A stretch of DNA of 64,000 nt. Origin: Anaerolineae bacterium (GTDB taxonomy: Bacteria; Chloroflexota; Anaerolineae; JAAYZQ01). Numbering within the stretch: position 1 is the first letter of the stretch; the number at the start of each line of letters is the position of its first letter. Below, piece by piece: positions 29,061-63,174 of the stretch. The stretch is taken from the NCBI GenBank assembly GCA_041300865.1, contig JBFYTF010000036.1:34604-98603 (forward strand), given 5' to 3'. The position numbers and the translations under genes were made by a program. The notes under the pieces were generated by a model that made no database searches, was not told where the DNA came from, and saw nothing but the letters and a program-made list of their open reading frames with translations.

Positions 29061-29094
29061 CCGTTCTCCCGAGCTTGATGACTTTGGAGAGCGA

Positions 29095-29123
29095 TTGACC
29101 AGGCGAGCGTTCAGCCTGGTCAA
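29095..29123 (-). promoter_or_regulatory. Intercistronic hairpin between the binding-protein and ATPase genes
   Basis: Perfect 9-bp inverted repeat ttgaccagg / cctggtcaa with an 11-nt loop and no U-tract. Confidence 0.5.
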
Positions 29124-29141
29124 CCGCATCTCAGTTCATAT

Positions 29142-30182: not shown

Positions 30183-30396
30183 TTTCTCTCTCCTTTTTGT
30201 TTCAAGCGTTCTTTTCGAACCAGCGGACGGCTGCGAAAAACGCACATGGACTTTTGCGCCGACCCCCATGGATGTGTCGGGCACAGCGTCTCATCCCGCA
30301 ATCCCCTTATCAGACTCTTGTTGGGCTACGCCTCCTTCTCTGGTGCTAAGCAAAGACCCGCACCCCACTTTGCGTCCGAGCCTCGCTCCAGCCGCC

Positions 30397-32616: not shown

Positions 32617-32664
32617 GCGGCCTCCTTTGCCCTGACTTCTCAAGACGACAACGTTCCGGGTGCC

Positions 32665-33144: not shown

Positions 33145-33260
33145 GGCTTACTCCTCCGTCGTTCTTGTCCGCGGCCACTGCGCGGAGCAACTAACCTTCA
33201 GTCAGACATCGAGATGGCTGAGACCATATCGCAATCCGATGGCTTCCGTAATACCGGATC

Positions 33261-40273: not shown

Positions 40274-40321
40274 TGCCTGCCTTTCCTGCTACTTTTCCAG
40301 GTCTCCGAACAAGAGCGCCTT

Positions 40322-40353
40322 GCCTGGGCGCAGCGCACGCGCTGCGCCCAGGC
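40322..40353 (-). promoter_or_regulatory. Strong intercistronic hairpin between the binding-protein and ATPase genes
   Basis: Perfect 15-nt inverted repeat gcctgggcgcagcgc / gcgctgcgcccaggc separated by 2 nt. No clear U-tract. Confidence 0.6.
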
Positions 40354-40369
40354 GATCACAGGTCGACTG

Positions 40370-43633: not shown

Positions 43634-43657
43634 CGTCTCTCCTTCCCGTTGCCGGCC

Positions 43658-45136: not shown

Positions 45137-45164
45137 GTCTGCCTCATTTCGAGAGATGACGACA

Positions 45165-46808: not shown

Positions 46809-46824
46809 GATGCGTCTCCCTGTG

Positions 46825-47832: not shown

Positions 47833-47872
47833 CGCTGATTCCTCTCCAGCCTGTTTGCTTGGCGCTGCGCGC

Positions 47873-48874: not shown

Positions 48875-48875
48875 C

Positions 48876-50579
48876 TCACTCCACCCATTCCGCCGGCCGG
48901 TCCTGCCTGGCGGCCAAAATGCAGCCCTCGTGACTGGAGCCAACCTCGGCCGCGTAGCGGGCCAGGTAACCGGACAGGCGCTGCTCCCGCGGCTTCCAGG
49001 CGCCGCGCCGTTCCGCCAATGCCTTGGCAGAGACCAGGAGATCCAGGCGCCGGGCGGGAAGGTCAACCACGATCTCGTCGCCGTCCTGCACCAGGGCGAT
49101 GGGGCCGCCGGCCGCCGCCTCGGGGGCAACGTGCCCCACACAGGCGCCACGGGAGCCGCCCGAAAAGCGGCCATCGGTCACGAGCGACACCGTCCTGCCC
49201 AGTTCCTGCCCGGCGAGCAACGTGGCCGGGACATGCATCTCGGGCATCCCGGGCCCCCCTCGCGGGCCCTCGTAGCGGATGACCATGATGTCGCCGGGCT
49301 GCACCGCGTGCCGGCGCAGTGCCTCCACGGCCGCATCTTCGCCTTCGAACACGCGAGCAGGCCCGCGGTGGCAGCGCATCTCGGGCGCCACGGCACTTTG
49401 CTTCACGACCGCGCCCAGGGGCGCCAGGCTGCCGGTGAGGACCGCCAGGCTGCCCTCCGCAGACAGGGGATCTCCTGTCGAGCGCACAACAGACCGCGCC
49501 TCACCGGCGGCGGCCGGCACGTGGTCGGCCAGGGTGCCCCCGGCCGCTGTGGGCAGGTCAAGGTCGAGCCGGTCGCGCAGCTCGGCCATGACGGCCGGGA
49601 TACCCCCGGCCTGGTCCAGGGCCAGCAAGGAGTGCCGCCCGCTGGGCTTGACGTCGCACAGGAACGGCGTCTGGCGGTTGATGGCGTCGAATGCGGACAG
49701 ATCCAGCGGCACACCGGCTTCCCGGGCCAGGGCCAGCAGGTGTAGCACGGTGTTGGTCGAGGCGCCGATGGCGGCCCCGACGGTGATGGCATTGCGCAGC
49801 GATCCTGTGCCGATGATCGCACGGGGACGCAGATTCTCGTGCAGCAGGGCCACTGCCCGGGCGCCACTGCGGTGTGCCTCGCCGCACTTGGCGCCCGACG
49901 TCGCGTGCGTCGTCGCGCTGCGGGGTAGGGCCATGCCCAGGGCCTCGGTCAGGCAGGCCATGCTGTTGGCCGTGCCCATCATCGAGCAGGCACCGGGCCC
50001 GGGGCAGATGTGGCGCTCGATCTCTGCGAGCTGCTCGGCCGAGATGCGCCCCTCCAGGTATCGGCCCGTCGCTTCCCGGGCCTGGTAGACAGCCCACTCG
50101 CGGCCCATGTACCGCCCCGGCTCCATGGGGCCGCCGGGGACGATGATAGCCGGCAAGTTGAGGCGCGACGCGACCAGGAGCGCAGCCGGCAGGCTCTTGT
50201 CGCAGGAGGTGAGGATGACCAGGGCGTCAAAGGCGTGAGCCACGGCCATCACCTCTATCGAGTCGGCGATTAGCTCCCGGCTGGGAAGCGACATGCGCAT
50301 GCCGGCGTGGCCCATGGCCAGCCCGTCGCAGACGCCGATGGTGTTCACCTCGAAGGGCGTGCCGCCGGCTTCCGAGACCCCTTCGGCGGCCGCCCGGGCC
50401 AGCTCGCGCAGATGCGCGTGGCCCGGGTGTCCGCTGCTCCAGGTGCTCACCACGCCGACAAAGGGCCGGTCGAGATCGTCCCGGCCGAGCCCCAGGGAGT
50501 AGAGCAAGCCCCTCTGGCCCGCACGCTCCGGGCCGTCGGTCAGCCTGCGGCTCGGCCAGGTACTCGTCTGGTTGCTCAC
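48876..50579 (-). CDS. IlvD/Edd family dehydratase (dihydroxy-acid / sugar-acid dehydratase)
   Basis: Motifs GVCDGLAMGH, LTSCDKSLPA and PGGPGMPEM. Confidence 0.85.
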   Translation of the reverse strand: MSNQTSTWPSRRLTDGPERAGQRGLLYSLGLGRDDLDRPFVGVVSTWSSGHPGHAHLRELARAAAEGVSEAGGTPFEVNTIGVCDGLAMGHAGMRMSLPSRELIADSIEVMAVAHAFDALVILTSCDKSLPAALLVASRLNLPAIIVPGGPMEPGRYMGREWAVYQAREATGRYLEGRISAEQLAEIERHICPGPGACSMMGTANSMACLTEALGMALPRSATTHATSGAKCGEAHRSGARAVALLHENLRPRAIIGTGSLRNAITVGAAIGASTNTVLHLLALAREAGVPLDLSAFDAINRQTPFLCDVKPSGRHSLLALDQAGGIPAVMAELRDRLDLDLPTAAGGTLADHVPAAAGEARSVVRSTGDPLSAEGSLAVLTGSLAPLGAVVKQSAVAPEMRCHRGPARVFEGEDAAVEALRRHAVQPGDIMVIRYEGPRGGPGMPEMHVPATLLAGQELGRTVSLVTDGRFSGGSRGACVGHVAPEAAAGGPIALVQDGDEIVVDLPARRLDLLVSAKALAERRGAWKPREQRLSGYLARYAAEVGSSHEGCILAARQDRPAEWVE

Positions 50580-50586
50580 AGCTCGC

Positions 50587-51942
50587 CTACTGCACCATGC
50601 CCAGGTCTCGCTCCGCCTGGAAGATGGCGCGGTCGGTGATCTGGATCATCTCGTCGACCTCGGCCTTGGTGATGATCAGCGGCGGGCAGAACTCGATGAT
50701 GTTCTCCACGCGCCTCAGGATCAGGCCCGCCTGCAGGGCAGAGGCCATGATGCGCTCACAGAAGCTGTTCTGCTCGTCAAAGCGCGCCTTGGTCTTCTTG
50801 TCGCTGACAAATTCCACGGCGCACATCAGCCCCAGGCCGCGCACGTCGCCGACGGTGGGATGGCCGGCCAACGAGCGCAGGCCGTCCAGCATGTAGGCCC
50901 CGACCTCAGCCGAGTTCTCGACGAGCCCCTCGCGCTCGATGATCTCGAGATTCTTCAGGCCTGTGGCCGTGGATACCGGATGGTTGTTGTAGGTGTGGAC
51001 GTGCATGAACGTGGGCATGTCCTCCACGATGTACCTCTTGGCCGCCGTGGCGCCGAGGGGCATGTACCCCGAGGAGATGCCTTTGGCCATGACCAGCAGG
51101 TCGGGCTCGACGCCAAAGTGCGTGATGGCAAACATCTTGCCCGTCCGCCCAAAGCCGCACACCACCTCGTCGTCGATGAGCAGCACGCCGTGCTGGTCAC
51201 AGATCTCGCGCAGGCGCGGCCAGTACTCGGGCGGCGGCACCATGCAGCCACCCGCACCCAACACGACTTCGCCGATGACGGCCGCCACCGAGTCGGGCTG
51301 CTCGAACTCGATGATCTGGGCGATCGACTCGGCACACTGCAGGCTGCAATTCGGATACTCGAGGCCAAAGGGGCAGCGGTAGCAATACTGCTCGGGGGCA
51401 AAGTAGTAGCCGGGCGGCAGTGGCTCCATGATCTGGCGCATGGGCGATAACGTGCCTGTGGCAGCCAGGGCGCCCATGGTCGAGCCATGATAGGCGCGGC
51501 GCCGGGAGATGATCTTGTACTTGCGGCGATAGCCTTTGTGATATGCCCATTGCTTGGCCAGCTTGAAGGCCGACTCGACGGCCTCACTGCCATCCTGGGT
51601 AAAAAACACGTAGGGCATGTCGCCGGGCAGGATCTGGCTCAGCTTCGAGGCAAAGTCGATGGCGGGCTGCGCGACAAAGCCGTACGGGCAAAAGTAGTGC
51701 ATCTTGCAGGCCTGGTCGTACATGGTCCGGGCCATCTCTTCGCGCCCGTAGCCGATGAGCACCGCGTACACCCCGCTCGACATGGAGTCCATGTAGCGCC
51801 TGCCCTCTGTGTCCCAGAGATAGATCCCCTCGCCGCGCTCAAAGACCAGGGGGCCCAGCTGGCTTACCTCGGAAGGCGACACGACGGGGAAAATGATGTG
51901 GTCGGTCGCTTGCTGCCGTAGGTTCTTGGTCTGCTCACTCAT
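50587..51942 (-). CDS. Class-III PLP aminotransferase (omega-transaminase type)
   Basis: Motifs LIDDEVVCGFGRTGKMFA and VMAKGISSGYMPLG. Confidence 0.85.
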   Translation of the reverse strand: MSEQTKNLRQQATDHIIFPVVSPSEVSQLGPLVFERGEGIYLWDTEGRRYMDSMSSGVYAVLIGYGREEMARTMYDQACKMHYFCPYGFVAQPAIDFASKLSQILPGDMPYVFFTQDGSEAVESAFKLAKQWAYHKGYRRKYKIISRRRAYHGSTMGALAATGTLSPMRQIMEPLPPGYYFAPEQYCYRCPFGLEYPNCSLQCAESIAQIIEFEQPDSVAAVIGEVVLGAGGCMVPPPEYWPRLREICDQHGVLLIDDEVVCGFGRTGKMFAITHFGVEPDLLVMAKGISSGYMPLGATAAKRYIVEDMPTFMHVHTYNNHPVSTATGLKNLEIIEREGLVENSAEVGAYMLDGLRSLAGHPTVGDVRGLGLMCAVEFVSDKKTKARFDEQNSFCERIMASALQAGLILRRVENIIEFCPPLIITKAEVDEMIQITDRAIFQAERDLGMVQ

Positions 51943-51979: not shown

Positions 51980-53917
51980 TTACAGGCTCAGAACGGCCCG
52001 GGAAGCCGAGTGGATCGCATGGCGGATGGTCCTTGGCTCGGCGCAATCGCCGACTGCGAGGACCTGCGGTGCCACACCCTGCCAATGGCCCGGCAGCCCT
52101 GGGTCCGTCGTGCGTCCCCAGGCTACCAGCACACTGTCCGCCGGGTAGGTGGTTGCCGTCCCGCCTACGTCCGCGGCCACACCGTCGCCGCCGATGGCCG
52201 TGGCGCGGGCATTCGTGACGACCGTCACCCCGGCCTCGTCCAGCATCTTTTTCAGCAACAGCTGCCGGCCCACGTATTGCAGATAGGACGCATCGGCATA
52301 GCTCGCGCTGGGCTCGAGGACGGTGACCTCGTGGTTTCTCCGTCGCAGGGAGAGCGCGGCCTCGATGCCCTCGTTGCCGCCCAGCACGACGACCCGCTCG
52401 CCCAGCTGGGCCGTCCCCTGAAGGTAGGCCAGCAGATCGACCGTGGCCGGCCCGCCGTCCACAGGCAAGCCCGCCGGCAGCGTCTGGGCTCCCACGGCCA
52501 GGATGACGACGTCGGCACCGCCGGCCCGCACCAGCTCGGGGGTCGCTTCCACGCCGACATGGACCTCGACGTGCAGTTTCTCCAGTTCCCGCTGCTGCCA
52601 CTGGATGATGTTCGCCAGCTCGGCCATGTAGACCCGCGGCATGTTCGAGACCAGGCATACCAGCCCGCCGAGGCTGGCCTTTTCGTACAGGGTGACGCTG
52701 TGGCCCTTCAACGCGGCCAGGCGCGCCGCCTCCATGCCGGCCGGCCCACCGCCTACGACGACGACCTTCTTGGGGCGGACGGGCCGCTCCATCCTGGCGC
52801 GGACCTCCTCCTCACGCATGACTTCAAAGTTGATCGAGCAGTCGGCGACCCACTGCACGATATGCCGGTAGGAGCAGCCGATGTCGCAGGCGATGCACTT
52901 GCGCACGTCGTCGTAGCGGCCCTCCTCCATCTTGCGGGGCAGCTCGGGGTCCGCCAGGCTCTGGCGGGCCATGGCCACCATGTCGACCTTGCCCTGGCTC
53001 AGGATCCGCTCCACGAGCTTCGGGTCGTTGATGCGGCCCACGCCGATGACGGGGATGTTCACCTTCTCCTTCACCCGCTCGGCCAGGTAGAGGATCGGCG
53101 CCTTGGGGGAGTAGAGGGGCTGGATGTTGTAATAGACCCGCTCCTGGATGCCCCCCGACACGTCGATGCAGTCGATGCCCAGCTCCTCCAAGAGCGGGGC
53201 ATAGACGTTCGCCGTCTCGTCGATGGTCAACCCCGCGTCGCCCAGGAAGTCGTCGGCGCTGACGCGGTAAAAGAGGGGGTAGTCGGGTCCCACGGCCTCG
53301 CGCACGGCCCGCACGACCTGTTTGACGATGAGGTAGCGGTCCCGGCCGTACTCGTCGGTGCGGCGGTTGCAGTAGGGCGAGACAAACTGGGAGAGCAGGA
53401 AGCCGTGGGCGCCGTGGATCATCACGCCGTCGAACCCGGCCGCCTTGGAGCGCAGCGCGGCGCGCACCCAGGACTGCACGAGCTCCTCAATCTCGGCGAC
53501 GGTCAGCCCCCGCGGCCTTTCGCTCAGAGGCGGTGTCTCGTCCGACGGAGCCAGGGGCTGCCGGCCGGTGAACGCCCGGGGGGCGCAGCGCCCGCCGTGC
53601 ACGAGCTGGATGGTGCATTTGGCGCCGTTGTCATGGATGCCGCACACCAGCTCGCTCAAACCCGGAATCTGGCGGTCGTCGTAGACCCCCAGCATCCGCC
53701 CGAACATGTTGCCGTCGGGCCGGATGTAGGAAGCCTCGACGTGCACCAGCCCCCAACCCCCGGCTGCCTTGGCGGCGTAATAGGGCAGCATCCTGGGCGT
53801 CACGTGCCCGTCCTCCGTCGCATGGTTCATGACCATGGGTGCCGCGACCAACCTGTTCTTCAGGGCCAGCTTGCCGACGTTGATGGGATTAAAAACGGCC
53901 GCACGAGCTTCGCTCAC
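51980..53917 (-). CDS. Old-Yellow-Enzyme-type NADH:flavin oxidoreductase fused to an FAD/NAD(P) reductase domain (2,4-dienoyl-CoA / enoate reductase family)
   Basis: OYE N-terminus (FNPINVGKLALKNRLVAAPM), a CIACDIGC cluster motif and a Rossmann motif VVVVGGGPAGMEAA. GTG start with GGAGGAG. Confidence 0.85.
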   Translation of the reverse strand: MSEARAAVFNPINVGKLALKNRLVAAPMVMNHATEDGHVTPRMLPYYAAKAAGGWGLVHVEASYIRPDGNMFGRMLGVYDDRQIPGLSELVCGIHDNGAKCTIQLVHGGRCAPRAFTGRQPLAPSDETPPLSERPRGLTVAEIEELVQSWVRAALRSKAAGFDGVMIHGAHGFLLSQFVSPYCNRRTDEYGRDRYLIVKQVVRAVREAVGPDYPLFYRVSADDFLGDAGLTIDETANVYAPLLEELGIDCIDVSGGIQERVYYNIQPLYSPKAPILYLAERVKEKVNIPVIGVGRINDPKLVERILSQGKVDMVAMARQSLADPELPRKMEEGRYDDVRKCIACDIGCSYRHIVQWVADCSINFEVMREEEVRARMERPVRPKKVVVVGGGPAGMEAARLAALKGHSVTLYEKASLGGLVCLVSNMPRVYMAELANIIQWQQRELEKLHVEVHVGVEATPELVRAGGADVVILAVGAQTLPAGLPVDGGPATVDLLAYLQGTAQLGERVVVLGGNEGIEAALSLRRRNHEVTVLEPSASYADASYLQYVGRQLLLKKMLDEAGVTVVTNARATAIGGDGVAADVGGTATTYPADSVLVAWGRTTDPGLPGHWQGVAPQVLAVGDCAEPRTIRHAIHSASRAVLSL

Positions 53918-53944: not shown

Positions 53945-55177
53945 TCAGGCCACGCTCTGGGCAGCTGCCCGGCAGGCCACGTCAAGACGAGACAGCGCAT
54001 CCTCGACTTCGGCTGGGGTAATGGTCAGCGGTGGTTCGAGGCGTGCCGTGACGTCGTCGTTGATGGAATCGCCGATGATCACGTGCTGCCGGTGGACCTC
54101 GTCGACGTAGGCAGCCATGATTTCCTTGCTCTGCAGCTCGACGCCGATCATCAGCCCCAACCCCCGCACCTCCTTGATGACCGAGGGGTAGCGGACTTGC
54201 TGATCGCGGAGCCCGGCCATAAACTGCTCCCCCCGCTCGGCGGCTTTGGCCGGCAGGTTCTCCTGCCGCGTGAACTCCATGGCCGCCTTGGCCGCGGCAC
54301 AGCACACAGGGTGCCCACCGAACGTCGTCAGGTGCGAAAGCATGGGGTTGCACAGGGTGTCCATGACCTCGGGCCGCCCGATGAAGGCGCCGAGGGGCAT
54401 GCCACCGCCCAACGCCTTGGCCAGCACCATGATGTCGGGCACCACGTTCCAGTGCTCGCAGGCGAACCAGCGGCCCGTGCGGCCAAAGCCCGTCTGCACC
54501 TCGTCAAAGATCATGAGCGCGCCCGTGCGGTCGCACAGCTCGCGGATGCCGGGCAGGTAGTCGTCGTCGGGGATGCGCACGCCGCCCTCGCCCTGGATGG
54601 GCTCGATGATGATGGCCGCCGTGCGCTCGTCGATGGCCTGGCGTGCCGCCGGCAGGTCGTTGAAGGGGACAAAGTGCACATCGGGTACCAGGGGCTCGAA
54701 GGGCTTGCGATAGTGCTCGCGCCAGGTCACCGACAGCGCGCCGAAGGTGCGCCCGTGAAACGCGCGCTGGCAGGAGATGATGCGGCTGCGACCGGTGTAC
54801 TTGCGAGCCGTTTTCAGTGCGCCCTCGATGCCTTCACAGCCGCTGTTGGTGAAGAACGTCGTCTGCAGCTCCGGCGGCGTGACCTCGGCCAGCAGCCTGG
54901 CGGCCTCCACCTGGATGGGGATGACGTACTTGCCAAAAACCATGGTGTGCATTGACTTGTCCAGCTGGGCCTTGACCGCTGCCACGACTGCGTCGTTGCG
55001 ATGGCCAACGTTACACACGGCAATGCCGGCCAGCAGGTCGAGGTATTCTTCCCCGTCGACGGTGATGATACTGCACCCCTTGGATTCCGCCACGACCATG
55101 TCCTTGGCAAAGGGCGTGGTGCGGCAGATGTACTTCCTGTCGGCTGCGATGTATTCGGCTTTGGTTGCTGCGTCCAT
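53945..55177 (-). CDS. Class-III PLP aminotransferase
   Basis: Motifs MIFDEVQTGFGRTGRWFA and VLAKALGGGMPLG. ATG at 55177 (the track starts at GTG 55186). Confidence 0.85.
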   Translation of the reverse strand: MDAATKAEYIAADRKYICRTTPFAKDMVVAESKGCSIITVDGEEYLDLLAGIAVCNVGHRNDAVVAAVKAQLDKSMHTMVFGKYVIPIQVEAARLLAEVTPPELQTTFFTNSGCEGIEGALKTARKYTGRSRIISCQRAFHGRTFGALSVTWREHYRKPFEPLVPDVHFVPFNDLPAARQAIDERTAAIIIEPIQGEGGVRIPDDDYLPGIRELCDRTGALMIFDEVQTGFGRTGRWFACEHWNVVPDIMVLAKALGGGMPLGAFIGRPEVMDTLCNPMLSHLTTFGGHPVCCAAAKAAMEFTRQENLPAKAAERGEQFMAGLRDQQVRYPSVIKEVRGLGLMIGVELQSKEIMAAYVDEVHRQHVIIGDSINDDVTARLEPPLTITPAEVEDALSRLDVACRAAAQSVA

Positions 55178-55279
55178 AAAACTCACCCTCTGCGATCGTC
55201 TTGGTCCTGCAACTGCTGTTGGGCGTCACGCTGCCCTGCGGACCTGGCCGGACAGCACCGGACCGGGCCGCACCACCTG

Positions 55280-56431
55280 TCACCGGTAGTGCCCAACCTC
55301 CAGGGCAGTATCAAAGGCGGCGACAATGTTCTCCGGTGGCACCATCGCCTGGATGTTGTGCACAGCGGCAAACACATACTCACCCCCGGGGGCCAGGTCG
55401 TCGATGCGGCGCTTCACCTCGTCGGCAACCTCCCGGGGCGTGCCAAACGGCAGGACGTGCTGCGTGTCGACACCGCCGCCCCAGAAGACGATGTGCCGCC
55501 CGTAGCTCTCTTTCAGCTTCCTTGTATCCATCCCGCCGGCCGAGACCTGCACCGGGTTGACGATGTCCACCCCGACGTCGATCAGGTCCGCAATCTGCTC
55601 CGAGACGGCGCCACAGCCGTGGTAGAACAGCCTGGCGCCGGTTTTGTTCTTGATGGCGTCAAAGAGGCGCCTTTGCCTGGGCTTGATCGACCGTCGATAC
55701 AGGTCGGGCGAAATCAGCCAGCCGTGCTGGCCACAAATGTCATCCCAGTAGACAAAGACGTCCAGGAACTCGCCCACCTGGTCGAGATAGTTGTTGCAGG
55801 AGTCGATATAGAGCTCGGTGAGCTGGTCCAGGAGGCGGTTGGCAAAGGCCGGTTCCCGCAGCAGGGCGACGAGAAAACTCTCAAAGCCCATCATCGTCGC
55901 CGGCTGCTCAAAGATGCCACCGCCGATGATGGCGCTGCCCGTCAAAGCGCAGCCCGAGGTCTGGGAGAGGTGCACCGCCTGCTCGCGCAGGCGGCCCAGG
56001 TGGCCGGGCGGATCAAGGGGCGGCCAGGCGTAGGCGTCCAGCGCCTGCGACGTGGCCTCCCGGACGGGGAACTCGACCCAATCGTAGTACAGCCCGCCGT
56101 CTTTGGGCATGTGGAGTTTGGCGCCCCATCGGTCGACGTAGGCATAGTAGGGACCCTCTTCAAAGACCTCGACGGGCTGCATGTCCACCGCCGGCAGCTC
56201 GAGCATGCGCAGGTCCGCCCCGAGGCGAACTTGGAGCTGCTCATCCACGTAGGGCAGCTGCTGGATAGGGTCGACGATGGTCAGCTCTTCGACGTCCATG
56301 CCGAGATATCTCTTTAGCTGGATGTAGGCCTCGCGGTGGATGGACGAGCAGGCGGTGCCGCCAAAGTCGATGGGCACCCGATCCGGCTCCTGGTGATTCA
56401 GCGCGCACGCTACTCGCTGCCGAGAGTCCAC
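55280..56431 (-). CDS. Uroporphyrinogen-decarboxylase (URO-D) family protein (MtaA/CmuA-like fold)
   Basis: N-terminus (V)DSRQRVACALNHQEPDRVPIDFGG. GTG at 56431 preceded by AGGCGAGGA, just after the upstream stop. The track's 73-aa N-terminal extension was rejected. Confidence 0.65.
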   Translation of the reverse strand: MDSRQRVACALNHQEPDRVPIDFGGTACSSIHREAYIQLKRYLGMDVEELTIVDPIQQLPYVDEQLQVRLGADLRMLELPAVDMQPVEVFEEGPYYAYVDRWGAKLHMPKDGGLYYDWVEFPVREATSQALDAYAWPPLDPPGHLGRLREQAVHLSQTSGCALTGSAIIGGGIFEQPATMMGFESFLVALLREPAFANRLLDQLTELYIDSCNNYLDQVGEFLDVFVYWDDICGQHGWLISPDLYRRSIKPRQRRLFDAIKNKTGARLFYHGCGAVSEQIADLIDVGVDIVNPVQVSAGGMDTRKLKESYGRHIVFWGGGVDTQHVLPFGTPREVADEVKRRIDDLAPGGEYVFAAVHNIQAMVPPENIVAAFDTALEVGHYR

Positions 56432-56450
56432 TTTGTCCTCGCCTGGTGAC

Positions 56451-57443
56451 CTAGAGGCTGGCCAGGTGTTGCCCCAGAACGGCCAGCGTCTCTGGCAGCA
56501 CGAGCGGCGTGGCACCTGCTCCCCCTGTGGCGAACGTCCCCTGGACCTGGCGCGGCGTACGCCCCGGCGATCGCTCGGCCAGCCTGTCGAGGATGGCGTC
56601 GATCTCGGCCTCGTCGGGGATGCAGCGCACCCAACCGGGGCGAGAGTCATTCACGCCTACCAGGCGCAGCATGCCCTGGCTGGTCTGCCGGCCGAGTGCC
56701 AGTCCGGCGCGGCGCTTTTCCTCGACACTGGTCATGAAGCTGCGGTGCGTCAGCTTGGGGCTGACGAAAGCCAAACGGGCCACGTAGGCATCACCAAACC
56801 GCTCCAACATGGCGACAATCAGCTTGACGAGACGGTTGTGCATCTCGACAAAGGCGGCCTTCTCGTTGTCGCCCCAGCGATAACCGTTCGCGGCCGGTTT
56901 CGCCGTGCAGTCTGGGCGCCAGGGGCAGACCGCAGTGCCCCGGTGCTCGAACAGGCCGGGGTCGTCGTAGCGGGCCACCGGCGACGGCCTGTCGCGAAAG
57001 CGATAGAGCAGCTCGTAAGGGACGAGGGCCATGGGCTCGGAGACGACAAAGCGGTGAAGGTGCAGATCGCCCCGGCACCAGACCCGGTTGTTCAGCGTGC
57101 GGGCATCGGCGCCTGGCGGCAGCGCGGCCAGCAGCTCCGGCGGCTCGTCGCCGGCCTCGACCGGCTGGAAGCCCACCGCGAGCAGGTAGCGGTTAATCGC
57201 CTGGTGCTCATCGCTCAGGCTGTAGGGTTTGACCTTGGTGCAGGGGAGGAGGAGCATGACTGCCTTCCTGCCGGTCACCGGCGGCCGGTACTCGGTCAGC
57301 ATGTAGTGGTGCAGGTCGCGCACCGCGGGGTGGTCCAGCCCCTCGACGTTCTCCTGCGGGCAGAAGAACGTGAGCGTTTCGTCCAGCGTGAACGGTGCGG
57401 CGATCTTGGCATAGGCGGCGCGAACTCGGTCTGCTCTGTCCAT
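56451..57443 (-). CDS. Stand-alone ArcS-C1/DUF5591-like protein
   Basis: 330 aa. LLLPCTKVKPYSLSDEH matches PC-X3-KPY-X2-S-X2-H exactly (P67..H80, nt 57204-57245). ATG at 57443 after AAGGAGGA. The upstream 236 aa of the track ORF overlap the S-component genes and were rejected. Confidence 0.65.
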   Translation of the reverse strand: MDRADRVRAAYAKIAAPFTLDETLTFFCPQENVEGLDHPAVRDLHHYMLTEYRPPVTGRKAVMLLLPCTKVKPYSLSDEHQAINRYLLAVGFQPVEAGDEPPELLAALPPGADARTLNNRVWCRGDLHLHRFVVSEPMALVPYELLYRFRDRPSPVARYDDPGLFEHRGTAVCPWRPDCTAKPAANGYRWGDNEKAAFVEMHNRLVKLIVAMLERFGDAYVARLAFVSPKLTHRSFMTSVEEKRRAGLALGRQTSQGMLRLVGVNDSRPGWVRCIPDEAEIDAILDRLAERSPGRTPRQVQGTFATGGAGATPLVLPETLAVLGQHLASL

Positions 57444-57475
57444 GATGATCCTCGTCCTCCTTGACGGCAATAGCG

Positions 57476-57525
57476 GGTCCCCCCGGCGGTCCCTGGCTGC
57501 TCGCTTCGGGTGAGCCGGGGGGACC
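57476..57525 (-). promoter_or_regulatory. Long-stem intercistronic RNA structure
   Basis: Perfect 12-bp arms ggtccccccggc / gccggggggacc enclose 26 nt that contain a ttcg-looped inner hairpin. No U-tract. Confidence 0.5.
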
Positions 57526-57547
57526 GAGTGCGCGGGATTGCGGTAGA

Positions 57548-58228
57548 TCAGGTAATGATCCCGCGAGTCGCCAGCCCGTAGCGCTCGATGACCGGGGTCA
57601 GCACGCGCAGGAGGATCGGAGCAATGATGATCGTGACGATCATATTCCCGATCCACCAGGCGGTGATCGCCGGCCAGTAGGCGTCGGGAGGCACCAGGCC
57701 ACCCCAGCGCAGGATGGTTACCCCGTAGAGTGCACCGAGACCGTTGGGCACGAGCACGGCAAAGACGAGGAAGAAGAGGATCCCTTTCAGGGAGTAGACG
57801 TCCTTGCCGAGGGGATCCAGACCGAACCGGTGGGCCAGGGTGCGGTAGGCGATCAGCGGGATGCCAAATTGGATCAAGTCCACCAGGGCGAAGGGGATGG
57901 TCAAGAGCACGGGTGTCCCGGCCAGAATTCCGGCGCCGATGAATGAACCGATGTAGCCAATGAGCAGGCCCCAGCCACCAAACCACATGGCAAAGGGGAT
58001 GCCAAAGCCGATGGCCACAAACAGCGCCGAGACGCTGACAATACCGACGGGCAGGGCAATGACCCCCAGCCAGGAGAGGATGGTATAGACGCCTGCGGCC
58101 ACGGCATAGGTTACCAGGCTCACCACCGTCACCGGTGGGTTGGGGTTCCACTTCAGCCCGTAGGGAATGCGTGGGGCGCCGCCCCTCAGCGGGGCAGCAG
58201 CCTGTGTGGGCTGAGTTGCTTCTGACAT
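57548..58228 (-). CDS. ECF-transporter substrate-specific (S) component, paralog 2
   Basis: 226 aa with about 6 hydrophobic segments. YGLKWNPNPPVTV motif shared with the neighbour. AAGGAGG RBS. Confidence 0.65.
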   Translation of the reverse strand: MSEATQPTQAAAPLRGGAPRIPYGLKWNPNPPVTVVSLVTYAVAAGVYTILSWLGVIALPVGIVSVSALFVAIGFGIPFAMWFGGWGLLIGYIGSFIGAGILAGTPVLLTIPFALVDLIQFGIPLIAYRTLAHRFGLDPLGKDVYSLKGILFFLVFAVLVPNGLGALYGVTILRWGGLVPPDAYWPAITAWWIGNMIVTIIIAPILLRVLTPVIERYGLATRGIIT

Positions 58229-58259
58229 CGCGTACGCCTCCTTTCTGGAGCTCAGACTG

Positions 58260-58928
58260 TCACGTCAGCCAGCCAAAGTTGGTCAAGCCCATGCGCTCGA
58301 CCACAGGGCCCAGCAGGCGCAGCAGGACGGGTCCGACGACGATCACGACGATAAAGTTGCCCGCTATCATGCCCAAAAAGCTCACCAAGAGCATGTTCTG
58401 CGGGACAAAGCCTGCCACGTAGAGCAGCGGTACTCCGTACAATGCCCCGAGGACATGGGGGATCAAGGCACCAAAGATCGCGAAGTAGACAAAGCCCCTG
58501 GCGGTAAAGACGTCTTTGCCGATGGGATCGACTTTGAAACGTTTCGCGAATCCTCGGTAGAGCAGCACGAGGCTTCCGAACAGGATGATGTCCCCAACGC
58601 CGAAAGCCAGGGAGAGAGGTAATGGCAGGCCGGCCAGAATGCCGGCGCCGATGCTCGTGCCGATAAAGCCCATGACCAATCCCCAGAAACCGAACCACAT
58701 GGCGAACGGAACGCCAAAGCCCATGGCGATAAAGAGGCCGCCAATGCCCGGAATCTGGATCGGGCCGGAGACAACACTGATCCACGCCAGGACGGTATAG
58801 ACGCCCGTCGCCAGGGCATACGCCACCAACTGAGGTACCGTGACGGGTGGGTTCGGGTTCCACTTCAGACCGTACTCCATACGCGGTCTGGCGGACACCG
58901 GACCGGACTGTGCAGCCTTGGTAGTCAT
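58260..58928 (-). CDS. ECF-transporter substrate-specific (S) component, paralog 1
   Basis: 222 aa. Clear paralog of 57548-58228 (YGLKWNPNPPVTV, GFGVPFAMWFG, IGAGILAG). AAGGAGA RBS. Confidence 0.65.
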   Translation of the reverse strand: MTTKAAQSGPVSARPRMEYGLKWNPNPPVTVPQLVAYALATGVYTVLAWISVVSGPIQIPGIGGLFIAMGFGVPFAMWFGFWGLVMGFIGTSIGAGILAGLPLPLSLAFGVGDIILFGSLVLLYRGFAKRFKVDPIGKDVFTARGFVYFAIFGALIPHVLGALYGVPLLYVAGFVPQNMLLVSFLGMIAGNFIVVIVVGPVLLRLLGPVVERMGLTNFGWLT

Positions 58929-59052
58929 CGATCGCTTCTCCTTTTCCTGTCTTTTTCCTAGCAGACTCCACTTCGACGTCAGCCGGGATGCCGTTCAGTC
59001 GTTGATTGGTTTGTACCCTCCTTTCGGAACCCTCTGGCACGGGCGCTGCCGG

Positions 59053-60843
59053 CTAGCCCCGGCTGTAGCCCTCCAGCGCCCTGACCCACTCCACAGTGTT
59101 GAGCAGCAGAGGATAGCCCTCATTCTGCTCTCGGAGCGCAACGCTCAGGGAGATGGCCTGGGGCGCGCACAGCTGCGTGGCCTGGATGTGCTCAGGGTTC
59201 GAGAACAGCTCTCGCGGGCTGCCGGTAAAGATATCGTGCCCGTTGAGCAATACCACTACCCGCTGGCAGTAGTTGGCCACAAGCGTCATGTCGTGGGTAA
59301 TGATCAGCACGGTGTTGCCCTGTTTGTGCAGATCCTCCAGCAGGTTCATGATCCCGCACACCATGTCATAATCCTGGCCGGTGGTTGGTTCATCGACAAT
59401 GATCATCTCGGGGCGCATGGCAAGAATCGAGGCCACCGCCAGGCGCTGTCGTTGCCCTTTGCCCAGGAAGAGCGGATCCTCATGGGCCTGGTCTGCCAGG
59501 CCGACCGCCTCCAGGGCCTGCATGATACGGTCTTCCTTCTCGGCTTCGGGCACCTCCAGGTTCTTGAGACCGTAGGCAACCTCGGCATGGACCTGCCGCG
59601 AAAAGATCTGGTGGTCCGGGTTCTGGAACACGTAGCCCACGTAGCGGGGGAGCTGCCGCCGCAGCGAGCGCTTGGTCACGTCCATGCCCAGGACGCGGAC
59701 GGTGCCGGCGGAGGGCTTGTAGATACCATTCAGGATCTTGGCGACGGTCGTCTTGCCGCTGCCGTTGGTGCCGAGCAGGGCCAGTACCTCGCCCTTGTGC
59801 AGCTCGAAATTGACGCCGTGGAGGGCCTTGGTCCCATCGTCATAGACATATTCCAGATCCTTGACCTCGAGCAGTACCTCCCCATCGGGCTGATAGTCGG
59901 CCGGCTGGCAGGCGCAGTCCAGGTCCTTGGGGAAACACCCCAGGCATTCCTCGACGGAAATCGGTACCGCATCCTGGTCGCCGATACCAGCCTCGGAGGC
60001 GATTTGAGAGACCTCAAAGCGGTAGATGCCAGACTCTGCCAGGACGTCGACGTGCCGGTAGAAATTGGCCGCGGTGTCTACCAGCTTGACCTCACCGTCG
60101 TCGATGAGATAAATCCGGTCACAGAACCGGTGCAGGATCGCCGGGTCCTGCTCCACGAGGATCACGGTCATGTCATGCTCGTCGTGCAGCATCCGCACGG
60201 TCTCGATCACCTCGCTCTTGCCCCGCGGATCGAGGTCGCTGGTGGGCTCGTCGAGGATGAGCAGGTCAGGGCGCATGGCGAGGAAGGAGGCAATCGCAAC
60301 CCGCTGCTTCTGCCCTCCTGACAGATCGTTCGGATGGATATACTCCGCATCCGCGATGAGAAAGCCCAGCCCGACCATCTCCAGGGCTTCGCGCACGCGC
60401 ACTTCGATCTCTTCTTTGGGCAGCTTGAGCATCTGGAGGCCAAACGAGACTTCGTGCAACAGGCTCATTTTGAGGAACTGGTTCTCCGGATCCTGGAGGA
60501 CCATCCCCGCCTTGGCAGCGTTGATGCCGCGCCCCAGGAGCTTGCCCAGGGGCTGATCGTCCATGACGTTGCCTTCGGGGTCGACATCGGTCACCAGCTC
60601 ACCGTCGACCCAGACACTTCCCTGCCAGTGATAGTTGTAGGCCTGGAACGGGACCTTGAGGCCATGGGGGATGATGCCCACAATCGCCTTGCAGGTCGTC
60701 GTCTTGCCGACCCCGCTGGGACCGGTGATGCCGATGAACTCGCCGCGCTGGATCTCCAGGTTGATGCCTTTGAGCGTCCAGGGGTTTTCCTCCAAGCCGC
60801 TGAAACTCGGATACCGCCAGTGCAGGTTTTCGACCTTGACCAT
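59053..60843 (-). CDS. Fused double ECF/cobalt-type ABC ATPase (EcfA-EcfA')
   Basis: Walker A GPSGVGKTT and GTNGSGKTT; signatures LSGGQKQRVAIA and LGKGQRQRLAVA. ATG at 60843, 5 nt after the ecfT stop. Confidence 0.85.
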   Translation of the reverse strand: MVKVENLHWRYPSFSGLEENPWTLKGINLEIQRGEFIGITGPSGVGKTTTCKAIVGIIPHGLKVPFQAYNYHWQGSVWVDGELVTDVDPEGNVMDDQPLGKLLGRGINAAKAGMVLQDPENQFLKMSLLHEVSFGLQMLKLPKEEIEVRVREALEMVGLGFLIADAEYIHPNDLSGGQKQRVAIASFLAMRPDLLILDEPTSDLDPRGKSEVIETVRMLHDEHDMTVILVEQDPAILHRFCDRIYLIDDGEVKLVDTAANFYRHVDVLAESGIYRFEVSQIASEAGIGDQDAVPISVEECLGCFPKDLDCACQPADYQPDGEVLLEVKDLEYVYDDGTKALHGVNFELHKGEVLALLGTNGSGKTTVAKILNGIYKPSAGTVRVLGMDVTKRSLRRQLPRYVGYVFQNPDHQIFSRQVHAEVAYGLKNLEVPEAEKEDRIMQALEAVGLADQAHEDPLFLGKGQRQRLAVASILAMRPEMIIVDEPTTGQDYDMVCGIMNLLEDLHKQGNTVLIITHDMTLVANYCQRVVVLLNGHDIFTGSPRELFSNPEHIQATQLCAPQAISLSVALREQNEGYPLLLNTVEWVRALEGYSRG

Positions 60844-60848
60844 TGTGC

Positions 60849-61919
60849 TCACAGGGCTTCTCCCAAGAGTTCTGTAAAATTGATGCCGAAGCCGACCACG
60901 ACAACCAGGAGCAGGGCGCAAATACCCATCACGATCCAGTCGGCAAGGGTGAAGGGACGGACTTCGTGAAACTCGGTCGGGTCCTTCAGTTGCATCGAAA
61001 AGCCACGGGTGAGAGCGGCATCGCCGACTTCGCTCGAGCGGCGCAGCATCGTGGCCGTCAGTGGGACCGCAATGTACGCCAGATCGGCAATGATGCGCAA
61101 GAGGTTCTTCTGCTTGAGCGAGACACCGCGCGCCACCTGGGCCTGACGGATGGTGCTGTAGTCAAAGAGGGCCATGCTCAGACTGCGCAGCATGGTCGAC
61201 ACAAAAAAGGCCGAGATATAAGGAGCGCGGAACTGGCGCATGGTGCCAATGATCTCGATGTCCCGGCTGGTCATGACCAGCATCAGCGAAACCAACATCA
61301 TCGCCCCGTAGCCCAATGCTTTGGTCACCGCTACCACCAGGTTCTGCGACGATATCGTGATTACCATCGGGCGGAGAAAGTTGAACTCGGTGATCGTGAT
61401 CGACGGGTTGCCAAACACGTAGGTCACCAGCCCGCTCAGGACGAGGCCGCCCACAATCCCCCAGAAGATTCCCTTGCGCACAACGTACCAGGCCACCGCG
61501 AATGCTACAAAGACAACCAACCTGAGAGAGATGCCCAGCGAGATGACCCCCGCATATACAGGAATTCGCGCCACAACAGTTCCGCCGAGGCTTGGGTTAA
61601 AGACCACCCAGGCGAAAGCCATGCCGAACAGGGCGGGGAACATGACAATTGCATAAGACCTGAACACCCAGCGGAGCACGCCGCTGAGATAGAGGCCAAG
61701 AAAAGCGAGTAGGATCATGAGGATTGTACCCACGGGATCCGGATCGTCGGTTTTGATGAACCGGACGACGACGAAGGACAAGATGAGGATCGCGAACAGC
61801 TTGGTCAAGACATGCAGCCGGGCGAGGGGAGAGTCGATTTTGACCGCGAAGAGAAAACTGCGTACCCATTCCTTGCCGTGTACCTGTTCCTGGGTGACCG
61901 GTACGGCGACTTCTGCCAT
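60849..61919 (-). CDS. ecfT: ECF transporter transmembrane (T) component, CbiQ/EcfT family
   Basis: Multi-TM protein with QAQVARGVS (the Ala-Arg-Gly coupling motif). AAGGAG lies 6 nt before the ATG. Confidence 0.75.
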   Translation of the reverse strand: MAEVAVPVTQEQVHGKEWVRSFLFAVKIDSPLARLHVLTKLFAILILSFVVVRFIKTDDPDPVGTILMILLAFLGLYLSGVLRWVFRSYAIVMFPALFGMAFAWVVFNPSLGGTVVARIPVYAGVISLGISLRLVVFVAFAVAWYVVRKGIFWGIVGGLVLSGLVTYVFGNPSITITEFNFLRPMVITISSQNLVVAVTKALGYGAMMLVSLMLVMTSRDIEIIGTMRQFRAPYISAFFVSTMLRSLSMALFDYSTIRQAQVARGVSLKQKNLLRIIADLAYIAVPLTATMLRRSSEVGDAALTRGFSMQLKDPTEFHEVRPFTLADWIVMGICALLLVVVVGFGINFTELLGEAL

Positions 61920-61949
61920 GCTTCACTCCTTCTTGTCGGTTGTCTGTTC

Positions 61950-61973
61950 ACAAAAGGAGCCCGCGCTGGCTCC
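61950..61973 (-). promoter_or_regulatory. Terminator-like hairpin (possible attenuator) about 30 nt upstream of the ecfT start
   Basis: Minus strand GGAGCC-agcgcg-GGCTCC followed by TTTTGT. It lies inside the 361-nt gntR-ecfT spacer. Confidence 0.45.
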
Positions 61974-62280
61974 TCATCCTGCCAGGGCCGTTGAAAGCAC
62001 GAACACGAGAGACCCAACAGGGACCCATATCCAGACATCAAGGGCGTTTCGGGTCTAGGCAGTCAAATCACTACCTTCTGCTTTGCGCAAGCGTGTCTGA
62101 TAACGGCTGACCATAGCCCCTATTTCGCAATTTGATTCGCAAAGACCGAAGCGGCCGACGCATCGCCGGCCCGCCCACCCGATCCTCCGGCCGGCCTGCA
62201 ACCCTGTCCAACCCCATGGTTGCGCGCCAGCCGAACAGGGAGTGGCCATGCCGCCGGCGGCAAGTTGGCGTTGGCGCGTC

Positions 62281-62979
62281 CTAGGTTGCGCTTTGCCGCT
62301 TGACAAACTCGACAATACGATTGCCGGCCGTGGTGATATGATCGGCCAGATGTTCTGCCGCCAGGTCTGCATCCCGGGCACGCAACGCCTCGACGATGGC
62401 CCGGTGCTGGGTGATGGACTGCTCGGTGCGGCCGGGAATCATCCACAGCAGATCGGTGGCAAAGCGCGGCCACAGGCGTTCGATGAGGCCGCGCAACGTC
62501 TCGGAGCCCGCGCCCTGGTAGATGGTGGAATGAAACTGGTAATTGACACGGCGGACCTTGACGAGATCCATCTCCTCCCAAGCCTGTTCCATCTCGGTCA
62601 CGAGCCTGTCCAGGGTTTCCAGGTCGGCATCCTGCAGGCGGGCGGCAAACATGCGGACGGCAAGGCACTCCAATGCCACGCGGATGGGTGTGATCTCTCG
62701 AGTGTCTTGGGGGGAGACTTCGGCGACGTAGACGCCCTTGTGGGAAACGTGTTCCAGGAGACCTTCCGTTTCGAGAATGCGCAACACTTCACGCACGGGG
62801 GTGGCGCTCATGCCCAGCCATTCGGCCAGCTCCTGTTGTTTCAGTTTCTGCCCGGGCTTCAGGTCGCCGCGCAGAATGGCCTCGCGCAAAATCCTGGCCC
62901 CGCGTCCTAACTTGGTGCCCAGCCCGTCATCGACGATCACCGGCTGCGCTCCCAGATCGGTCAAACCATTGGTCTCCAT
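62281..62979 (-). CDS. GntR-family transcriptional regulator, FadR/FCD subfamily
   Basis: wHTH segment QQELAEWLGMSATPVREVLRILETEGLL plus a helical FCD-type C-terminus. GGAGGAGGA lies before the ATG at 62979. Confidence 0.85.
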   Translation of the reverse strand: METNGLTDLGAQPVIVDDGLGTKLGRGARILREAILRGDLKPGQKLKQQELAEWLGMSATPVREVLRILETEGLLEHVSHKGVYVAEVSPQDTREITPIRVALECLAVRMFAARLQDADLETLDRLVTEMEQAWEEMDLVKVRRVNYQFHSTIYQGAGSETLRGLIERLWPRFATDLLWMIPGRTEQSITQHRAIVEALRARDADLAAEHLADHITTAGNRIVEFVKRQSAT

Positions 62980-63025
62980 GTTGCCAGGTCCTCCTCCACG
63001 CCGAGTCCGAAGCCATCCGAAATAT

Positions 63026-63054
63026 AATATACAATATACTCGCGCATTTGTCAA
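63026..63054 (-). promoter_or_regulatory. Near-consensus promoter (TTGACA-17-TATATT) in front of the GntR gene
   Basis: On the minus strand, TTGACA is at 63054-63049 and TATATT at 63031-63026. GTATAT-T-GTATAT and TTGTATAT (63034-63027) overlap the -10. Confidence 0.7.
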
Positions 63055-63174
63055 GTGCGCGACTGCGTGGCTAAGGGGGAGAACGCCGTAAGGCGATATC
63101 ACGGGGATTGCCTTTTGAGGAGCCACCCTGGGTGGGGGGTAGCAGATTTGACAGAACCCTGCGCGTTGACGGCG

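Follow-up and report, generated by a model that had tools for sequence, protein, structure and literature searches.

Within a 64,000-nucleotide stretch of DNA from an Anaerolineae bacterium (Chloroflexota; contig JBFYTF010000036.1, positions 34,604 to 98,603; this whole stretch is hereafter "the window"), we identified a minus-strand operon that couples an energy-coupling factor (ECF) importer to a stand-alone homolog of the C1 domain of ArcS, a protein of 330 aa (56451..57443) that we refer to as DUF5591L. We propose, with a probability of roughly one half, that this operon is an inducible catabolic module for the uptake and processing of an N-heterocycle, in which DUF5591L would act on a nitrile- or amidine-type carbon. 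The proposal is built on gene content, homology, synteny together with its recurrence in other genomes, and fold predictions, from which we infer the reaction type of DUF5591L, a pathway that runs toward breakdown, and the kind of substrate. The initial annotation of this DNA, which was made from the letters alone, had listed six genes in the order ecfT, fused ecfA-A′, S component 1, S component 2, DUF5591-like, and URO-D-like, followed by genes for a transaminase, an OYE reductase, and a second transaminase, and this arrangement stood in full.

The ArcS catalytic domain was known only from tRNA modification in archaea and DNA modification in viruses, and a bacterial branch of it has now been found. 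All parts of the system belong to known superfamilies, and the claim of the initial annotation that the combination was undescribed agrees with the searchable literature, in which no description of either the bacterial DUF5591 branch or the S-component family turned up. If the chemistry of DUF5591L is ArcS-like, it would provide a new cofactor-free bacterial route for nitrile or amidine heterocycles, which could include 7-deazapurines. 7-Deazapurines are widespread, and to our knowledge no catabolism of them is known. The locus may furthermore represent an ECF importer that serves catabolism. Because cultured carriers of DUF5591L exist, the question is directly testable.

DUF5591L is a bacterial relative of the ArcS catalytic domain

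DUF5591L contains the complete motif PC-X3-KPY-X2-S-X2-H, in the form P67-C68-TKV-K72-P73-Y74-SL-S77-DE-H80, and none of P67, C68, K72, P73, Y74, S77, and H80 varies among the 55 family members aligned. Since the Pfam DUF5591 match (PF17884) is by itself marginal (26.6 bits where the gathering score is 26, with only the 39 residues 48-86 covered), homology to ArcS became secure only with a profile-profile test: Using hhalign, we compared the DUF5591L family with an ArcS alignment, composed of tRNA-guanine transglycosylase (TGT)+DUF5591+PUA proteins that the DUF5591L profile had retrieved, and obtained a probability of 99.4% and an E value of 1.7e-21 over 132 columns (residues 32-239). Along this alignment, DUF5591L keeps all of the ArcS C1 invariants, namely Y52, P67, C68, K72, P73, Y74, S77, H80, H130, P137, P142, Y159, and D160, and a second ArcS block, H...S/T-x-P-x-G-x-VP...YD, is present as well. 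Among 1.84 billion representative proteins, the profile found only some five full-length clusters belonging to the family itself, and beyond these it retrieved proteins that carry TGT, DUF5591, and PUA domains by Pfam (P0351, E 2.5e-07; P0365, E 2.3e-06; P0368, E 4.3e-06). The DUF5591/ArcS relationship that had been read from the sequence is thus borne out by both tests.

DUF5591L is nevertheless not an ArcS ortholog. DUF5591 is its only Pfam match, with no TGT or PUA domain detected, which confirms for TGT what the initial annotation had reported. Two family-specific insertions (residues ~93-126 and 161-191) interrupt the core, and a C-terminal extension of ~90 residues (~240-330) replaces the C2 and PUA domains of ArcS. 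Because of the missing TGT-like, C2, and PUA parts, the insertions, and the new C-terminal domain, we classify DUF5591L as a member of the DUF5591 superfamily and not as an ArcS ortholog.

The AlphaFold2 model of DUF5591L was of high confidence (pLDDT 94.1, pTM 0.92), and its top Foldseek match in a viral library was ArcS2 of Vibrio phage nt-1 (R9TEI9; E 5.2e-3, probability 1.00, TM 0.39/0.54), a protein that was shown experimentally to make dG+ from dPreQ0 in DNA (PMC10516641). By sequence, the sole PDB match was 2q07 (AF0587 of Archaeoglobus fulgidus; E 7.8e-4), which covers ~50 residues in the motif region; 2q07 is not among the 50 Foldseek matches listed for the full model. ArcS itself is cofactor-independent and adds lysine to the free preQ0 nucleoside (PMC11298593), which brings small-molecule substrates within reach of the ArcS fold. 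By analogy with ArcS, DUF5591L would act on a nitrile- or amidine-type carbon.

DUF5591L recurs next to transporter genes in five phyla

More than 370 homologs of ~330 aa were found, none of them named, and a scan of one genome per GTDB species (185,579 representatives) located a relative in 101 species. The five phyla represented are Chloroflexota, Alphaproteobacteria, Acidobacteriota, Actinomycetota, and that of one Lachnospiraceae metagenome-assembled genome (MAG), and cultured carriers include Bradyrhizobium, Kaistia, Mesorhizobium, Parvibaculum, and Maritimibacter. Named examples among these are Bradyrhizobium elkanii WSM2783, Kaistia soli DSM 19436, Parvibaculum sedimenti, and Maritimibacter alkaliphilus. 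A plasmid collection held one annotated homolog, in Rhizobium sp. ACO-34A, where the gene and most of its neighbors are labeled "hypothetical." Two homologs are unusual: P0253 (730 aa), which combines a LacI-type regulator with the N-terminal portion of a DUF5591-like protein, either as a true fusion or through a faulty join, and P0039, a 64%-identical homolog in the MAG of a Micrarchaeaceae archaeon that is probably a binning artifact.

We annotated the flanks of related loci (denoted by L numbers) by similarity to window proteins and by de novo clustering of neighboring open reading frames (ORFs). ECF genes accompany DUF5591L in at least six other Chloroflexota contigs (L005/6, L007, L008, L011, L012, and L013), a clade in which DUF5591L identity is 66-84%. 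The gene order GntR-ecfT-ecfAA′-S(1-2)-DUF5591L is found in L007, L008, L011, L012, and L013 and is restricted to this closest clade; L005/6 has the same ecfT-ecfAA′-S-DUF5591L order, with GntR not detected. The full combination with URO-D is limited to the window, L005/6, L007, and L008, so that of the combination described in the initial annotation, the ECF-DUF5591L part recurred in all six, and the URO-D part in only half of them. A homolog of the first transaminase (AT1) lies directly 3′ of DUF5591L in L011-L013, and genes of the type located at 42536..50579 in the window also follow in L005, L007, L008, L011, and L012.

Neighbors within 5 kb of DUF5591L were counted over 81 nonredundant loci from the five phyla. 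A COG0402 aminohydrolase was the commonest (49 loci), along with a PhtD-like decarboxylase (39), a flavin monooxygenase (33), a class-III aminotransferase (28), and an aldehyde dehydrogenase (22). The type of transporter varied, and the ECF type singled out in the initial annotation was the rarest (6 loci), compared to 18 each for Bmp-type and NMT1/THI5-type ATP-binding cassette (ABC) systems. Over the full 10-kb flanks, class-II aldolase (20), DUF1989 (17), isochorismatase (15), and CN_hydrolase (10) genes appeared, and PF06684 also recurs (10-20 loci). The PhtD-like protein resembles 4,5-dihydroxyphthalate decarboxylase (PDB 9jp7, E 3e-57), and its gene lies directly 3′ of DUF5591L in 22 loci.

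In most other Chloroflexota, the transporter beside DUF5591L is a Bmp-type ABC system, with the conserved core COG0402-DUF5591L-(HDAC-like)-Bmp-ABC. The COG0402 gene there overlaps the start of DUF5591L (e.g., 8545-10008 versus 10001-11005 in L003), and the Bmp-ABC genes follow directly 3′ of DUF5591L in L001, L003, L016, L017, L022, L024, L032, and L049. Locus L013 bridges both arrangements, with the order ECF-DUF5591L-AT1-COG0402-HDAC followed by an ABC ATPase and permease. The enzyme gene thus stays constant while the transporter family is swapped, as would be expected if the enzyme acts on a small molecule brought in from outside. The initial annotation had suggested a free rather than a tRNA-bound substrate, and the tight linkage of DUF5591L to transporter genes, together with the acceptance of a free nucleoside by ArcS, argues for it.

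The Alphaproteobacterial loci are organized differently, with a PhtD-family gene directly 3′ and a flavin monooxygenase gene directly 5′ of DUF5591L (at ~11000-12000 in L034, L037, L041, L045, L054, L057, L061, and L088; at 17048-18022 in L095). The decarboxylase-type gene there takes the slot that the URO-D-like gene fills in the window.

An ECF module with two paralogous putative S components

The transporter part of the operon, encoded like the rest on the minus strand, starts with ecfT (60849..61919). The 356-aa EcfT matches CbiQ (PF02361) over residues 129-309 with 45.8 bits (cut-off 25), carries an N-terminal extension of ~100-130 aa ahead of this match, and is 55-84% identical to its counterparts in L005, L007, L008, and L011-L013. 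The next gene (59053..60852) encodes a fused EcfA-EcfA′ ATPase of ~597-599 aa, which starts at GTG 60852, where it overlaps the ecfT stop codon (GTGA), or at ATG 60843. The protein contains two ABC_tran domains and reached 415.8 bits with TIGR04520 (cut-off 315) and 410.6 bits with TIGR04521 (cut-off 330). The module thus has a T component of the CbiQ/EcfT family and two ECF-type ATPase domains, as expected of an ECF system.

With moderate confidence, we assign the products of the following two genes, S1 (58260..58928, 222 aa) and S2 (57548..58228, 226 aa), to an unclassified family of S components, a role that they would then fill in the importer. The two are paralogs (52% identity, E 2e-74), and the assignment was made from their position, predicted fold, and constant association with ECF genes, not from a family match. 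The AlphaFold2 model of S2 has six transmembrane helices (pLDDT 87.2, pTM 0.81), and its top Foldseek match in the PDB is BioY, the ECF biotin S component (4dve; probability 0.98, TM 0.47/0.55, E 0.25). At the helix-1 motif AxxxA, which has been used as an S-component criterion (PMC11109136), S1 reads AYALA and fits, and S2 reads AVAAG. Members of the family adjoin ecfT-ecfAA′ in all nine loci where they were found, with L009 and L010 also showing this association. The initial annotation had named QueT, QrtT, and other S families for comparison; the family did not match any Pfam S family (QueT, BioY, RibU, and others) even at E ≤ 1, none of 38 members matched PF06177 (QueT/QrtT) at that threshold, and no sequence match to the PDB was obtained.

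No profile recognizes this putative S-component family, and current pipelines label it a MASE1 sensor domain. MASE1 was weakly matched by 29 of the 38 members (best E 1e-9; profile positions ~5-175) and is the sole Pfam match of S1, and the label of homologs at the Joint Genome Institute (JGI) is "integral membrane sensor domain MASE1." Judging from these profile matches, the ECF-linked six-helix family may form a sequence-level bridge between S components and a membrane sensor domain. This likeness resembles the link between S components and 5TMR that was described in PMC11109136, where MASE1 is unmentioned.

In two of the related loci, an ordinary second ECF module lies a few kilobases upstream of the specialized one (L007, 655-3836; L008, 1033-4211). 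In this second module, EcfA and EcfA′ are separate proteins, EcfT is short, and the S component is of the RibU type.

The URO-D-like protein is a lineage-specific accessory

Downstream of DUF5591L, the operon encodes a URO-D/MtaA-superfamily protein (55280..56431; 383 aa from a GTG start) that matches PF01208 with 76.5 bits over residues 174-379 only. In the public record, this gene product has 365 aa; the GTG at 56431 lies 18 codons further upstream (56378-56431) and is supported by the homolog consensus, which begins MNxRERVxLALNHQEPDR. The NCBIfam matches are all of the MtaA/CmuA type, with no hemE model among them, and TIGR01463 (MtaA/CmuA) gave 52.1 bits against a cut-off of 235.4. Residues H271, C273, and H358 align with the Zn-ligand positions H246, C248, and C325 of MtaA (4ay7) and form a putative metal site; among 28 homologs, H271 and H358 are invariant, and C273 is kept in at least 90%. 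An identity as HemE was rejected on the grounds of the partial PF01208 match, the absence of a hemE model, and the MtaA-type metal-ligand positions. No corrinoid- or B12-binding protein was found among the window proteins, and we do not assign the protein to MtaA/CmuA itself.

The initial annotation had presented the URO-D-like protein as linked to the importer alongside DUF5591L. We rejected the role of a core partner of DUF5591L: Neither L011-L013 nor any of the 80 species-level loci has the gene. Since it occurs in a subset of loci only and belongs to a very large paralog family, we consider it an accessory. The family gave at least 7390 matches at E ≤ 1e-10 among 8000 candidates scored and is greatly expanded in Anaerolineae and other Chloroflexota. 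Relatives of 65-67% identity form URO-D triplets with an MtaA-like His/Cys/His site next to ribose/sugar-type (Peripla_BP_4) ABC transporters in other Chloroflexota (L091, 5788-9283; L093, 7001-10259), as part of this large expansion. For the expansion of URO-D paralogs in Anaerolineae, no literature description of such a system was found.

Operon structure, regulation, and probable catabolic surroundings

From ecfT to the second transaminase gene, intergenic distances range from a 4-bp overlap up to 124 bp, and a Shine-Dalgarno-like AAGGAG or GGAGG precedes most genes, which suggests that the ecf, S, DUF5591L, URO-D, and transaminase genes are co-transcribed. The genes are real and not chance ORFs, since each is conserved in many homologs and the gene order recurs. 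A promoter/terminator scan was uninformative, with no enrichment of terminator-like sites (8 found versus 4.6 ± 2.5 expected).

A 361-bp leader/promoter region (61920..62280) separates ecfT from a gene for a GntR/FCD-family transcription regulator (62281..63126, minus strand; Pfam GntR 57.9 bits, FCD 99.8 bits), whose true start probably lies inside the listed ORF, since its homologs measure ~222 aa. This protein is likely the local regulator of the operon, and its homologs lie directly 5′ of ecfT in L007, L008, and L011-L013. Scanned against Rfam, neither the window nor the ecfT leader matched any family, riboswitches included, at gathering score, and the leader gave nothing meaningful even at E ≤ 1. 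A direct repeat, TTGCGAA-N5-TTGCGAA, is located at 62142-62124 between the GntR gene and ecfT and could be a regulator site. No GntR operator common to the ecfT upstream regions of six related loci was found, and the direct repeat is not kept in them.

On the downstream side, the same strand carries a class-III (omega-amine) aminotransferase, AT1 (53945..55186; Aminotran_3, 376 bits), whose best NCBIfam models are putrescine and acetylornithine aminotransferases, all under cut-off; a 645-aa FadH/BaiCD-type reductase that joins an OYE-type flavin mononucleotide (FMN) domain to Pyr_redox_2 (51980..53917; Oxidored_FMN 255.7 bits, Pyr_redox_2 93.9 bits); and a further class-III aminotransferase, AT2 (50587..51942; 346.6 bits). 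The same-strand cluster continues at 42536..50579 with genes for an IlvD/Edd dehydratase, an S-adenosylmethionine (SAM) O-methyltransferase, a NicX-like dioxygenase, a CrtI/amine-oxidase-type flavoprotein, a COG0402 aminohydrolase, and an HDAC-type amidohydrolase. It is followed by a Bmp/PnrA-family ABC importer (36731..42385, minus strand) made up of a binding protein, an ATPase, and two permeases. The 671-aa binding protein (40370-42385) has two Bmp domains in tandem duplication, and its nearest NCBIfam model is that of a "putative B6 ABC transporter" binding protein (210 bits versus a cut-off of 400).

The window as a whole is a catabolic island with two Mo-hydroxylases, five amidohydrolase-family genes (the two tested are of COG0402 type), three class-III transaminases, two Bmp-type ABC systems, and the NicX-like dioxygenase. 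It also encodes a double isochorismatase, a PreA-like Fe-S flavoprotein, an aldehyde:ferredoxin oxidoreductase, and PrpF, aconitase-family, and PrpD proteins. The nearest relatives of the COG0402 proteins are uncharacterized structures, methylthioadenosine/S-adenosylhomocysteine (MTA/SAH) deaminase, 8-oxoguanine deaminase, and triazine hydrolases, and the HDAC-like protein resembles HDAC6, bacterial HDAH, polyamine deacetylase, and aryl-amide hydrolases. The Mo-hydroxylases, of the xanthine-dehydrogenase family, are encoded at 18474-22172 and 30397-34172; one is a 1232-aa flavin adenine dinucleotide (FAD)/2Fe-2S/Mo fusion, and the other is split into Mo and FAD subunits. The second of the two Bmp-type ABC systems, likewise complete, occupies 25461-30284. 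The segment 26000-36000, which holds this second Bmp-ABC system and the split Mo-hydroxylase, has a G+C content of 0.57-0.60 versus ~0.65 elsewhere and may have been acquired separately. At 7202-13921, genes for PrpF-family, aconitase-family, MmgE/PrpD, OTCase-like, and ATP-grasp (succinyl-CoA-synthetase-beta-like) proteins stand in a row. The pairing of a PrpF-type isomerase with an aconitase-type hydratase presumably recalls the lower part of the nicotinate fermentation pathway of Eubacterium barkeri.

Proposed role of the operon and alternative explanations

In the explanation that we favor, the operon is the front end of a pathway that probably continues on one strand into an island of more than 35 kb for the degradation of N-rich ring compounds. 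A dedicated group-I style ECF importer (EcfT, EcfA-A′, and two old S paralogs) would bring in an N-heterocycle of the nucleobase, nucleoside, or pyridine type. In the cytoplasm, DUF5591L, which keeps every ArcS motif residue including the cysteine, would most likely attack an electrophilic C-N group, either in the manner of ArcS, with a nitrile turned into an amidine by addition of ammonia or an amine, or through equivalent chemistry on an amidine. Nitrogen removal and ring processing would be the task of the COG0402 aminohydrolases/deiminases, the HDAC-type amidohydrolase, the omega-transaminases, and the OYE/FadH-type reductase, with the NicX-like dioxygenase available in this clade and the URO-D/MtaA-like protein as a lineage-specific add-on. 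Regulation would probably run through the upstream GntR/FCD protein rather than a riboswitch. We favor catabolism over the micronutrient salvage context suggested initially because of the GntR/FCD regulator, the lack of a riboswitch, and the setting in a 64-kb catabolic island.

Several observations weigh against this explanation. Every chemical step in it is drawn by analogy and names no substrate. Known ECF systems are low-capacity micronutrient importers, and one that feeds catabolism would be unusual. A SAM O-methyltransferase, which is atypical for catabolism, is part of the cluster. Regarding the transporter, the S-component call lacks a significant E value in sequence or fold (Foldseek E 0.25), and in one related genome the same ECF/S module lies ~4 kb from DUF5591L, beside an IlvD/NicX/O-methyltransferase module; since ECF is in addition the minority partner (6/81), the substrates of the importer and of DUF5591L may differ. 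Neighbor sets also differ markedly between phyla, and the family may thus lack a single substrate. As for the enzyme, the Pfam match is marginal and the NCBIfam ArcS models stay far under their cut-offs (NF053620, 26.3 versus 600; NF040592, 23.2 versus 440), and Foldseek matched the model to no PDB entry significantly (best E 0.4), so that the fold evidence comes from the viral-library match. Last, free preQ0 base was no substrate for ArcS, and the ArcS reaction is not reversible (PMC11298593).

An alternative that we consider doubtful, although a serious contender, is that DUF5591L keeps the fold and motif but catalyzes another reaction, for which hydrolysis or a lyase or isomerase step at a ring C-N bond, an amide, or a ureide would be examples; the catabolic island would be the same, and importer and neighbors would act as described above. 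Only ~130 of its 330 residues align with ArcS, and the two conserved insertions and the new C-terminal domain leave room for such a change; most neighbors are amide, ureide, or amidine hydrolases, natural nitriles are rare, and the flavin monooxygenase and PhtD-like decarboxylase that accompany DUF5591L in Alphaproteobacteria point to aromatic-acid chemistry. However, the invariance of Cys68, Lys72, Tyr74, Ser77, and His80 across five phyla argues for conserved catalysis.

A further possibility, and an unlikely one in our judgment, is the salvage or processing of 7-deazapurines: The ECF system would import preQ0, a preQ0- or toyocamycin-type nucleoside, queuine, or archaeosine, DUF5591L would convert the 7-nitrile, and deaminases, the amidohydrolase, and a decarboxylase-type protein would complete the route, for salvage or for catabolism. 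The only characterized DUF5591 enzymes indeed act on the preQ0 nitrile, in tRNA, DNA, or the free nucleoside (PMC11298593, PMC10516641), and all ArcS motif residues are kept. The transporter partners include Bmp/PnrA-type (nucleoside-type) systems as well as ECF, and the neighbors would fit a sequence from nitrile via amidine, amide, and acid to a decarboxylated and then deaminated base: They comprise two COG0402 paralogs, the nearest named relatives of the COG0402 proteins include 8-oxoguanine, guanine, MTA, and 5′-deoxyadenosine deaminases, an amidase or HDAC-type amidohydrolase is nearby, and a PhtD-like or URO-D-like gene is directly downstream. Yet the link to preQ0 and queuosine drawn by the initial annotation was not upheld by the gene content, as no queuosine, archaeosine, or preQ0 gene (queC/D/E/F, tgt, folE, dpdA, or a RaSEA-type gene) was found among the annotated genes of the window or of related loci. 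The S components have no QueT/QrtT match, and neither a preQ1 nor any other riboswitch was detected by Rfam in the window or leader. The URO-D-like protein resembles the Zn-type MtaA branch and not a decarboxylase, and the near-invariant insertion at 161-191 suggests a binding site unlike that of ArcS. Salvage, moreover, would leave the transaminases, aldehyde dehydrogenases, NicX-like dioxygenase, and Mo-hydroxylases unexplained.

A more detailed scheme, which we see as a long shot, would place DUF5591L at the entry of an "amine-relay" route that handles nitrile heterocycles independently of nitrilase, most plausibly 7-deazapurines (preQ0 and toyocamycin-type nucleosides). The cysteine would activate the nitrile, and lysine, another omega-amine, or ammonia would be added to yield an amidine, which the COG0402 deiminase would turn into an amide. 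The HDAC-type amidohydrolase or an amidase would then free the acid and regenerate the amine, the URO-D-like or PhtD-like protein would decarboxylate the acid, and ring deamination and ring opening would follow. If this were true, the twin S components, of a new ECF family, would belong to the first ECF importer dedicated to such a pathway.

It is improbable, in our view, that the ECF system supplies a cofactor or vitamin, for instance the corrinoid that the MtaA-like protein would need or a B6 vitamer used by the three transaminases, with the adjacency of DUF5591L reflecting co-regulation only. Micronutrients are indeed what all characterized ECF systems import (PMC4820897, PMC7755397). The URO-D-like protein can be aligned with a methylcobamide:coenzyme M (CoM) methyltransferase and keeps its metal-ligand positions, a putative B6 transporter is the nearest model, at a score well under cut-off, for the Bmp binding protein, and the same ECF/S module stands apart from DUF5591L in L009 and L010. 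Against this, no corrinoid-binding protein is among the annotated window proteins, half of the ECF-linked loci lack URO-D, regulation appears to be of the GntR/FCD type and not by a vitamin riboswitch, and the S proteins match none of the known families of vitamin S components; the separate RibU-type ECF module of L007 and L008 implies that the second module is specialized. Vitamin B6, nicotinate, s-triazine/guanylurea, and pyrimidine-reductive contexts were rejected, since each fits some neighbors and none fits the whole set or DUF5591L.

Comparison with known systems

The MtaA/MtbA/CmuA group (4ay7) provides the best PDB and NCBIfam relatives of the URO-D-like protein and shares with it the H-x-C zinc ligands, whereas the third ligand is His in the URO-D-like protein and Cys in MtaA, and the score is far under the family cut-off. 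The importer can be compared to group-I ECF systems such as BioMNY, CbiMNQO, and QrtTUVW, with which it has in common a CbiQ-family EcfT and ECF ATPases, encoded in one operon together with small proteins of a predicted six-helix, S-type fold. It differs from them in its undescribed putative S family with weak MASE1 matches, its two paralogous S genes, the fusion of A and A′, the N-terminal extension of EcfT, and a catabolic, GntR-linked context instead of vitamin salvage.

For DUF5591L, the nearest characterized relatives are archaeal and viral. Euryarchaeal ArcS combines a TGT-like N-terminal domain with C1/DUF5591, C2, and PUA domains; its C1 core is homologous to DUF5591L, with both the motif and the second block in common, but DUF5591L is bacterial and resides in transporter and catabolic operons rather than with tRNA-modification genes, and neither of the canonical ArcS partners, the radical SAM protein RaSEA and arcTGT, is present among the annotated genes of the window or of related loci. 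The uncharacterized DUF5591-type protein AF0587 (2q07) matches in the motif region, over only ~50 residues. The ArcS2 proteins of phages and archaeal viruses share with DUF5591L a single-domain DUF5591 core without TGT or PUA. ArcS2 is, however, a protein of ~226 aa that is encoded with dpdA and preQ0-synthesis genes, whereas the 330-aa DUF5591L has other neighbors, with no dpdA or que genes seen near it among the annotated window genes, and its identity to the nt-1 protein is ~10% in the structural alignment.

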